DNA from: Escherichia coli 042
GTDB lineage: Bacteria > Pseudomonadota > Gammaproteobacteria > Enterobacterales > Enterobacteriaceae
Strand: one strand, 5' to 3'
Assembly (NCBI RefSeq): GCF_000027125.1
Contig: NC_017626.1
DNA: 64,000 bases
Position 1 is the first letter of the stretch. The number at the start of each line of letters is the position of its first letter. The notes below the pieces were generated by a model. That model was not told where the DNA came from. It saw only the letters and a program-made list of their open reading frames with translations, and searched no databases. The position numbers and the translations under genes are program-made. Of this stretch, positions 61,981-62,798 are shown piece after piece.

Positions 61981-62517
61981 ATGACTACACTGACTATTAG
62001 CAGAAAACCGAAAGGCATTTACGGCATACCACAGAAAAAGACACAGACGACACAGCAGCAGGATAAAACCACATCAGCGCATAAAGTGATACCCGGCAAT
62101 CAGAACGCACAGCAGAGCCGCAAACAGAAGCCCACAGGGGCGACACCGTGGCGGCATATGACCAAACGCCAGGGCAAAAACCGCAGGCGCGTTAACCGTC
62201 TTATTGAACTATGGCCTGAATTATTCAGCCTGGAATCACCGAAGCCGCTTAAGGTAGGAATATTTGAAGACCTGATACAGGATATTGCCGTCAGGGCGCT
62301 GGCTTTTGGGTCAGGGGCATTACGTGCGGCGCTAGCATCTTATGCTCATTCTCCGCGTTATTACCGTGCCTTAATGGCTGGTGGCGTGCGTTACGATCTG
62401 AATAGCCAGCCATGCGGCGAGGTGACACAACAGGAACAGCAGGACGCGGAAGCACGACTGATGGCACTGAAAGAGAAGCGCAAACGTAAGTCGAACAAGG
62501 AGCAAGCTGGCGTATGA
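61981..62517 (+). CDS. ProQ/FinO-domain RNA-binding protein
   Basis: 178-aa ORF; KPLKVGIFEDL ... LRAALASYAHSPRYYRAL ... RYDLNSQPCGEV parallels the E. coli ProQ N-terminal domain. Confidence 0.75.
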   Translation: MTTLTISRKPKGIYGIPQKKTQTTQQQDKTTSAHKVIPGNQNAQQSRKQKPTGATPWRHMTKRQGKNRRRVNRLIELWPELFSLESPKPLKVGIFEDLIQDIAVRALAFGSGALRAALASYAHSPRYYRALMAGGVRYDLNSQPCGEVTQQEQQDAEARLMALKEKRKRKSNKEQAGV

Positions 62518-62798
62518 GTATGATTCACGACAGCAAAGCGGAAGATCTGGAGGCTAAAGGCCTGTACCGGAGAGCGGCAGCCCGATGGGCTGAGGTCATG
62601 CAACAGGTGAACACCGATAAGGAGCGCGAACAGGCAGTAAAGCGTCGCGCGAAATGTATCCACAAGGCAGCACGTTCGCCCGTCATGCTGGATAATTTCG
62701 GGGGCTTGAGAGAGGCAGCAAACCGCACACAGGCGGATATGGGGATAGAAATCGCAAAATCTGTCTGGCGGAACTACCAGACAGACAAGGTTTTATAG
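62514..62798 (+). CDS. PerC-family transcriptional regulator-like protein
   Basis: 94-aa ORF; AEDLEAKGLYRRAAARWAEVM resembles the PerC family signature; start overlaps preceding stop. Confidence 0.5.
   Translation: MSMIHDSKAEDLEAKGLYRRAAARWAEVMQQVNTDKEREQAVKRRAKCIHKAARSPVMLDNFGGLREAANRTQADMGIEIAKSVWRNYQTDKVL

Follow-up and report, generated by a model that had tools for sequence, protein, structure and literature searches.

This locus, a pair of overlapping genes on the plus strand near the end of a 64,000-nucleotide stretch of the Escherichia coli 042 chromosome (contig NC_017626.1; the whole stretch is called the window here), encodes a ProQ/FinO-domain protein and, directly downstream, a PerC-like protein. 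The pair lies in an 8.2-kb satellite island of the phage-inducible chromosomal island (PICI) type, integrated at a tRNA-Pro gene of the E. coli chromosome, and the two open reading frames (ORFs) are best explained as a conserved two-gene cassette of a PICI-type satellite family in E. coli and its relatives. Both genes are already known. They were annotated in the 2010 genome paper of Chaudhuri et al. (PMC2808357) as Ec042-2429, "similar to proQ", and Ec042-2430, "PerC-like protein", at 2557981..2558798 (window coordinates 61981..62798 plus 2,496,000, exactly 39 x 64,000), and both are named by the NCBI Prokaryotic Genome Annotation Pipeline (PGAP). The two ORFs are present as described in the initial annotation, and the ATGA overlap that it reported is confirmed at 62514-62517:

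61981..62517, plus strand: gene for the ProQ/FinO-domain protein (ORF, 178 amino acids, ATG start; Ec042-2429)
62514..62798, plus strand: gene for the PerC/Pch-family protein (ORF, 94 amino acids from the ATG at 62514, 92 amino acids from the ATG at 62520; Ec042-2430)
62497..62523, plus strand: coupling junction (Shine-Dalgarno sequence AAGGAG at 62497-62502, 11 nucleotides, ATGA at 62514-62517)

The first protein had been assigned to the ProQ/FinO family, and a profile search places it there. Pfam PF04352 (ProQ/FinO) matches residues 69-171 with an E-value of 1.7e-24 (model positions 6-107 of 109) and is the single Pfam domain of the protein, ending at residue 171. Further profile matches (phrog_21591 and three more PHROGs) have been obtained, and NCBIfam agrees. 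A sequence search of the PDB detects the ProQ N-terminal domain 5nb9 (E 1e-13), FinO 1dvo, NMB1681 and RocC; in this search every solved FinO-domain protein can be aligned with the 178-amino-acid chain. In an AlphaFold2 model residues 1-60 are predicted to be disordered, basic and glutamine-rich, and the FinO domain occupies residues 61-176 with a predicted local distance difference test score (pLDDT) of about 90. When the model was compared with the PDB by Foldseek, all 26 significant matches (E <= 0.001) were FinO, RocC, NMB1681 or the Legionella ProQ homologue, and a FinO-domain fold is the predicted structure. Four ProQ residues, K35, R58, Y70 and R80, which we take to be RNA-contacting (mutagenesis; the RocC-terminator structure), correspond in alignment to K91, R115, Y127 and R137, all of them invariant or at least 90% conserved within the ProQ-like subfamily. 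Judged by its sequence, the product of the first gene is a FinO-type RNA-binding protein, with a disordered basic N-terminus ahead of the FinO domain.

It is neither ProQ nor FinO proper, since its NCBIfam scores are about half the cut-offs (63.4 bits vs 127 for the ProQ equivalog NF003434, 67.1 bits vs 136 for FinO, NF010317), the linker and C-terminal Tudor-like domain of ProQ are absent (Pfam), and the gene is chromosomal. The conjugative-plasmid setting of FinO proper, with tra, FinP and traJ, is also absent from this chromosomal satellite.

The second protein is a small helical member of the PerC/Pch family. As the initial annotation had it, a profile search places the 94-amino-acid chain there, with Pfam PF06069 (PerC) matching residues 3-89 at an E-value of 1.7e-32 (model positions 1-88 of 90); NCBIfam and PHROGs give the same assignment. 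The N-terminal motif D-x-KAE-x-LE-x-x-G-L/F-Y-R-R-A-A-x-R-W is present. A sequence search found no relative of solved structure, and in a PerC fold model the conserved N-terminal half resembles tetratricopeptide repeats (TPR), so that this half is predicted to be a protein-binding rather than a DNA-binding fold. Membership of the family of AraC negative regulators (ANR) was considered and rejected: NF033650 gives 16.4 bits vs a cut-off of 32 (E 0.006), a resemblance rather than membership. Among named relatives PchE is closest, with 81% identity across the 54 amino acids that it retains. Identity is 40% to PerC of enteropathogenic E. coli (EPEC), an activator, and 53% to EcCIMP1_025, a PICI-borne PerC homologue that represses LEE1 of the enterocyte effacement locus (LEE).

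Both genes of the pair are real and intact, and both are under purifying selection. The ratio of nonsynonymous to synonymous substitution (dN/dS), taken against ten relatives, is 0.20-0.40 for the ProQ-like gene and 0.13-0.29 for the PerC-like gene, or 0.13-0.40 overall.

At the junction the ATG of the second ORF lies over the TGA of the first, in the sequence ...GGCGTATGAGTATGATT...; the stop/start overlap is 4 nucleotides long, reading ...GGC GTA TGA with the ATG at 62514-62516. A tandem 6-nucleotide duplication, GTATGA GTATGA (62512-62517 and 62518-62523), gives two ATGA motifs and hence a second in-frame ATG, at 62520. In alignment the duplication occurs only in the window and in its Escherichia albertii twin and is missing from other relatives, whose junction is AAGGAG-N11-ATGATTCAC, the ATG of the conserved N-terminus MI(H/R)DSKAE overlapping the upstream TGA. 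The ATG at 62514 overlaps the stop codon and retains the conserved AAGGAG-N11-ATG spacing; the ATG at 62520, which is the start chosen by PGAP, matches the conserved N-terminus of the homologues (MI.DSKAE). A start at 62514 instead of 62520 adds Met-Ser to the PerC-like N-terminus, and both candidates lie at most 6 nucleotides from the upstream stop.

Relatives were sampled as 89 enterobacterial loci with a ProQ-like gene (public assemblies and IMG/VR, annotated with custom profiles), which hold 53 distinct ProQ-like sequences. AAGGAG-N11-ATGA with PerC directly downstream is found in 37 of these 53, one of the 37 having GTGA. A stop/start overlap with a Shine-Dalgarno sequence inside the first ORF, conserved among relatives, is a mark of a coupled pair, and it is seen here. 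The conservation of overlap and spacing appears well beyond chance, which favors the coupling proposed in the initial annotation.

The cassette is common in E. coli. Part of the 818-bp pair was matched in 1596 of 5426 complete E. coli genomes (about 30%), and both genes in this arrangement in 236 of the 5426, with up to 10 matching places per genome; 2326 of the 2327 E. coli places are chromosomal. The best matches in this collection are 99.7% identical to the window, and strain 042 itself is seemingly not part of it. The island element recurs in 28 complete genomes with at least 99% identity, and the E. albertii copy of the island encodes an identical ProQ-like protein. Carriers of the cassette come from all sources and include both commensal and pathogenic E. 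coli. A scan of species-representative genomes returned mostly unrelated chromosomal ProQ of Burkholderiaceae, and useful information came only from the loci of E. albertii and Serratia. Occurrence of the pair in true phages was considered and rejected: lambdoid phages frequently have a PerC-like gene but seldom a ProQ-like one, and the two never lie side by side.

In the sampled loci the cassette directly follows a replication module (DUF4222, primase/helicase, origin, single-stranded DNA-binding protein or SSB) with at least three replicase types, DUF927, D5_N/DUF5906 and AAA_25. Truncated PchE itself is the overlapped downstream partner of a ProQ-like gene, in company with an AAA_25 replicase. 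The arrangement varies. In three of the 53 distinct sequences the order is reversed (SSB-PerC-ProQ), which indicates that adjacency survived rearrangement in three lineages. In eight, from capsid-forming satellites, PerC is missing and the capsid, protease, portal and terminase genes come directly after the ProQ-like gene. The slot is filled by PerC, without ProQ, in further capsid-forming satellites; in these relatives it is interior, with the replication module on one side and the packaging module on the other. In four of the 53 an Ant-like ORF of 138 amino acids is inserted and only the C-terminal half of PerC is left, and this is the commonest E. coli variant. The inserted ORF (loci L069-L072 and L148-L152) resembles the Ant anti-repressor (phrog_63) and overlaps the ProQ-like gene by 20 nucleotides; a 49-amino-acid C-terminal PerC remnant follows, and then large uncharacterised cargo genes of 600-918 amino acids.

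The two partners have not always travelled together. Divergence of the ProQ-like and PerC-like proteins is correlated (Mantel r 0.65), and in 86 of 903 comparisons ProQ-like proteins more than 90% identical are paired with PerC-like proteins less than 65% identical; the reverse was never seen. Within one pair of loci, synonymous sites of PerC have diverged up to five times as far as those of ProQ. Near-identical ProQ joined to divergent PerC points to recombination at or near the conserved ATGA junction, and such exchange of PerC alleles fits a loose modular cassette better than a co-adapted complex or a tight functional unit. Among the loci so joined are L080 when compared with L092, L114, L131, L136 and others.

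The island that carries the pair is flanked by yejM, tRNA-Pro(GGG) and yejO. Its genes and sites run in the order integrase, AlpA, isrK/C4 RNAs, icd-like ORF, DUF4222, DUF927 primase, origin iterons, SSB, ProQ-like, PerC-like, a 69-amino-acid ORF and a second iteron cluster. The features outside the pair are:

55837..55913, plus strand: tRNA-Pro (GGG), the integration site and left island end (ARAGORN, Rfam tRNA; ROD34 is placed at tRNA-Pro in PMC2808357)
56120..57364, plus strand: tyrosine integrase gene of the island
57617..57808, plus strand: gene for an AlpA-family helix-turn-helix regulator (Pfam Phage_AlpA, E 6.6e-06; helix-turn-helix regulator in PGAP)
58213-58289, plus strand: isrK-like RNA (Rfam RF01394, 52.9 bits, gathering score 50)
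58314-58401, plus strand: C4 antisense RNA (Rfam RF01695, 77.7 bits, gathering score 45)
58455-58694: icd-like ORF, just downstream of the isrK-like and C4 RNAs
58861..59148, plus strand: DUF4222 protein gene (ORF, PGAP), conserved first gene of the replication module, overlapping the primase start
59145..61283, plus strand: DUF927 primase/helicase-type replication protein, 712 amino acids (DUF927 in PGAP; Pfam DUF927 in relatives)
61309..61447, no strand: origin-like region between primase and ssb, with GTCCCA(C/A) iterons, an AT-rich spacer and four inverted TGGGACAAG repeats
61520..61945, plus strand: gene for the single-stranded DNA-binding protein, ssb (TIGR00621, 61.5 bits vs a cut-off of 53.95; PGAP)
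62855..63064, plus strand: small ORF of 69 amino acids downstream of the PerC-like gene (phrog_7206, E 1.3e-06), found only in the three loci of this island type
63598..63725, no strand: second iteron cluster near the right island end, with three CTTGTCCCA(C/A) copies, an AT-rich spacer and three inverted GGTGGGAC copies

In its organisation the island is a PICI-type phage satellite that lacks a packaging module. The integrase, AlpA-type regulator, primase and iteron origin share one orientation, the site is a tRNA gene, and structural and lysis genes are absent. Packaging-hijack genes (terS, ppi, rpp, capsid genes) were not found among the island ORFs; relatives have such genes. By the published ROD34 coordinates the right end of the island lies about 79 nucleotides past the end of the window, and no direct repeat of 12 nucleotides or more was found that could be attR.

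The isrK-like and C4 RNAs (58213..58401) ahead of the icd-like ORF form an RNA immunity module of the P1 immI / P4 CI type. Their genes are overlapped by a 198-amino-acid ORF (58036-58632) and by a PGAP pseudogene, 'ash family protein, incomplete', an annotation that is probably spurious because of this overlap. A weak similarity (E 5e-10) links the DUF927 primase/helicase (59145-61283) with Cch1, which staphylococcal SCCmec cassettes have as their replicative helicase. Both iteron clusters (61309-61447 and 63598-63725) are built from one iteron (GTCCCAC / TGGGACAAG / GGTGGGAC), in direct and inverted copies around the AT-rich spacer. The two clusters are separated by about 2.3 kb and enclose the block of ssb, the ProQ-like gene, the PerC-like gene and the 69-amino-acid ORF, an arrangement reminiscent of ori/crr in P4 or of a duplicated PICI origin. 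The gap between ssb and the ProQ-like gene is only 35 nucleotides, and since a terminator scan found no terminator-like site in it (61945-61981), ssb is probably in one operon with the ProQ-like gene. The last residues of the island SSB, DDPYEDEIPF, are the acidic tip by which host SSB recruits partner proteins, so that the island SSB could compete for host SSB-interacting proteins.

RNA partners of the FinO-like protein have been sought within these islands. The C4 and isrK-like RNAs are attractive candidate ligands for a FinO domain, being structured and terminator-bearing. As a conserved ligand they were rejected, since of 17 other ProQ-bearing loci only 2 have them according to Rfam, and nhmmer detects them in only 4 of 89 loci, the window included; RNAs this rare cannot be the conserved partner and are candidates for this island only. 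In two satellites without C4/isrK an Rfam 'int-alpA RNA' motif (46.9 bits) lies between integrase and alpA (L069 963-1030, L072 930-997). A second candidate was an antisense RNA, FinP-like, over the start of the DUF4222 gene. A conserved A-rich run and a hairpin, CTGGC-N6-GCCAG, lie at 58861-58895 and recur in the equivalent place in about 48 distinct related loci; on the minus strand at the start codon the hairpin is followed by a U-run, resembling an antisense terminator. This candidate is weak: no antisense promoter was found for the hairpin, and its bases also encode the conserved peptide SGFTASG, so that coding constraint would explain the conservation.

With a probability of about 0.5, the pair is a co-transcribed, translationally coupled cassette of PICI satellites, made up of a FinO-type RNA binder and a TPR-like modulator of transcription from the PerC family. 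The two genes would be co-transcribed with ssb, and PerC would be translated by ribosomes terminating on the FinO-like ORF, both proteins being made together. The FinO-like protein may act post-transcriptionally, by binding RNAs of the satellite, the helper phage or the host at terminator-type hairpins that have 3' tails. The PerC-like protein would modulate transcription through protein contacts, with a sign that depends on the allele. Both proteins would serve the regulatory programme of the satellite itself, effects on host regulons being possible side effects whose direction is unpredictable from sequence. The genes lie inside the satellite core, where in capsid-forming relatives their slot separates replication from packaging genes, and a role in the satellite life cycle is therefore at least as likely as host crosstalk. 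A more far-reaching version can be offered only tentatively: the FinO-domain chaperone would be a core regulator of one of the commonest E. coli satellite families, controlling satellite-helper conflict via RNA, and PerC/Pch proteins would primarily be TPR-like developmental regulators of satellites and phages, with LEE activation as a side effect.

Several observations weigh against the coupled-cassette reading. Each gene also occurs alone, as in the capsid-forming satellites with only ProQ or only PerC, and in EcCIMP1 and lambdoid phages, which have only PerC. In the commonest E. coli variant the Ant-like ORF has replaced the N-terminal half of PerC, and the 86 comparisons in which PerC diverges beside near-identical ProQ count in the same direction. 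No conserved RNA partner was found among the ProQ-bearing loci, and a literature search found no functional study of the two genes (expression, RNA binding or phenotype). The 8-kb island, lacking packaging genes, may be a remnant. Because the loci were collected through their similarity to the pair, the frequencies are biased.

Other explanations have been weighed beside it. The genes could be host-crosstalk cargo (moron genes), the PerC-like protein activating or silencing virulence or fitness genes and the FinO-like protein competing with chromosomal ProQ or extending its reach. PerC and PchABC indeed activate LEE1 (PMC11773190, PMC5293775), EPEC PerC also alters nitrate-respiration, fim and small RNA (sRNA) levels (PMC5293775), and in Citrobacter rodentium EcCIMP1_025 acts as a repressor of LEE1 (Pick et al. 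2025, PMC11773190). In EPEC the effect of chromosomal ProQ on ler is reportedly modulated by PerC (PMC12426089). The two genes are almost the sole non-core genes of a minimal island, and the 042 genome paper named both as notable island cargo (PMC2808357). However, LEE activation is not common to the whole PerC family (PMC11773190), and the PICI-borne homologues of EDL933 and CFT073 are inert on LEE1 according to Porter (2005), as relayed in PMC11773190. The slot is interior in capsid-forming satellites, and the cassette is carried by commensal as well as pathogenic strains. The allele of the window is nearer in identity to the repressor EcCIMP1_025 than to the activator PerC, with PchE closest of all, and its sequence alone cannot decide between activator, inert protein and repressor. 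Strain 042 is, to our knowledge, an enteroaggregative E. coli without LEE. Activation of host virulence regulons, which the initial annotation held possible for this pair, cannot be assumed from PICI PerC homologues that activate, ignore or repress LEE1; the families and the overlap on which that functional reading was built stand, and host virulence activation is not inferable for this allele or this host. Host crosstalk as the main role is, on balance, unlikely.

Control of replication or copy number is more doubtful still. In this explanation an antisense RNA would set primase/replicase expression or the firing of the origin, with the FinO-like protein as its chaperone, and PerC would be an unrelated passenger. 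Plasmids offer precedents for such FinO-domain proteins, FinO with FinP or RepX and FopA with Inc. Replicase, origin and ssb are the most constant neighbours of the ProQ-like gene, so that a copy-control role is conceivable, as in FinO/RepX; FinO is reported to control the copy number of a cohabiting plasmid via a FinP-like sRNA (PMC8136791). Vibrio episomal satellites with a 'ProQ/FinO-like regulator' beside parA/repA have also been noted in passing (PMC13230959). The conserved hairpin and U-run antisense to the DUF4222 start codon would suit this role, but the sequence analysis yielded no convincing antisense RNA, the hairpin lacks a recognisable antisense promoter and its conservation is accounted for by the peptide that it encodes; moreover, much the same ProQ-like protein accompanies different replicase types. 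That the two proteins form a physical complex, in which TPR-like PerC might be an adaptor or an antagonist of its partner and coupling would serve stoichiometry, has a low probability. It would agree with the conserved 4-nucleotide overlap, with adjacency in both gene orders and with the protein-binding nature of TPR-like folds, and the correlated divergence points the same way, although a Mantel correlation of this kind is expected from shared ancestry alone. Against it, each protein is commonly alone, PerC is truncated in the commonest E. coli variant, and PerC alleles change beside constant ProQ. Least probable by far, and already disfavoured, is the possibility that the pair is in decay, left over from a defective island and no longer functional. 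The missing packaging genes, an attR not located as a repeat and the 6-nucleotide duplication at the junction could be taken that way, but both ORFs are intact with dN/dS values of 0.13-0.40, and the element recurs nearly unchanged in the 28 complete genomes and, with an identical ProQ-like protein, in E. albertii.

The locus is a correctly annotated pair from known families, a real but fairly ordinary find; what is new, the conservation of the cassette as such and its satellite context, adds modestly to the published annotation. FinO-domain proteins are an emerging class of RNA chaperones whose known members on mobile elements control plasmid transfer or copy number, and no study of a satellite-borne FinO-domain subfamily this widespread was found in the literature searched. 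If the FinO-like protein acts on helper-phage or host RNAs, a post-transcriptional layer would be added to the conflicts among satellite, phage and host. The satellite context and the predicted TPR-like fold also suggest that "virulence activator" is too narrow a label for PerC, and predictions of pathogen regulation from the presence of a PerC gene would then be unsafe.

Several known systems resemble the pair or its island. ROD34 of enteroaggregative E. coli 042, 8169 bp at tRNA-Pro, is very probably the same locus; its description provides gene annotation only, and the overlap, the satellite nature and the recurrence of the cassette are not described there (PMC2808357). FinO, FopA, RocC, NMB1681 and the ProQ N-terminal domain share their domain with the ProQ-like protein by profile, sequence and predicted fold. 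The likeness to FinO goes further, to a basic N-terminal extension and a short basic C-terminal helix, collinear throughout (NF010317 positions 65-180 of 186). Unlike FinO, the ProQ-like gene is found on a chromosomal phage satellite, with no conjugative plasmid and no tra/FinP context. PerC of the EPEC plasmid pEAF and PchA-E of enterohaemorrhagic E. coli prophages and islands have the size of the PerC-like protein and are likewise carried on horizontally acquired elements.

PerC homologues are common in Gram-negative PICIs (PMC6092414, PMC11773190), and a literature search found no FinO-domain proteins in E. coli PICIs. EcCIMP1, the PICI of E. coli MP1, has a related backbone of int, AlpA, ash, icd-like, DUF4222, DUF927 primase and PerC genes, and EcCIMP1_025 shares with the PerC-like protein a weak match to the ANR family (PMC11773190). 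EcCIMP1 differs from the window island in being larger, in lacking a ProQ/FinO gene and in having a PerC gene that does not adjoin the replication module. Mobilisation by a helper phage has been shown for EcCIMP1 only (PMC11773190). The capsid-forming PICIs differ in another way, since the window island is only about 8 kb long and is without capsid and packaging genes. In those satellites the same DUF4222-primase-SSB module is followed by a ProQ-like or a PerC-like gene, and then by the genes for capsid, protease, portal, HNH and terminase.

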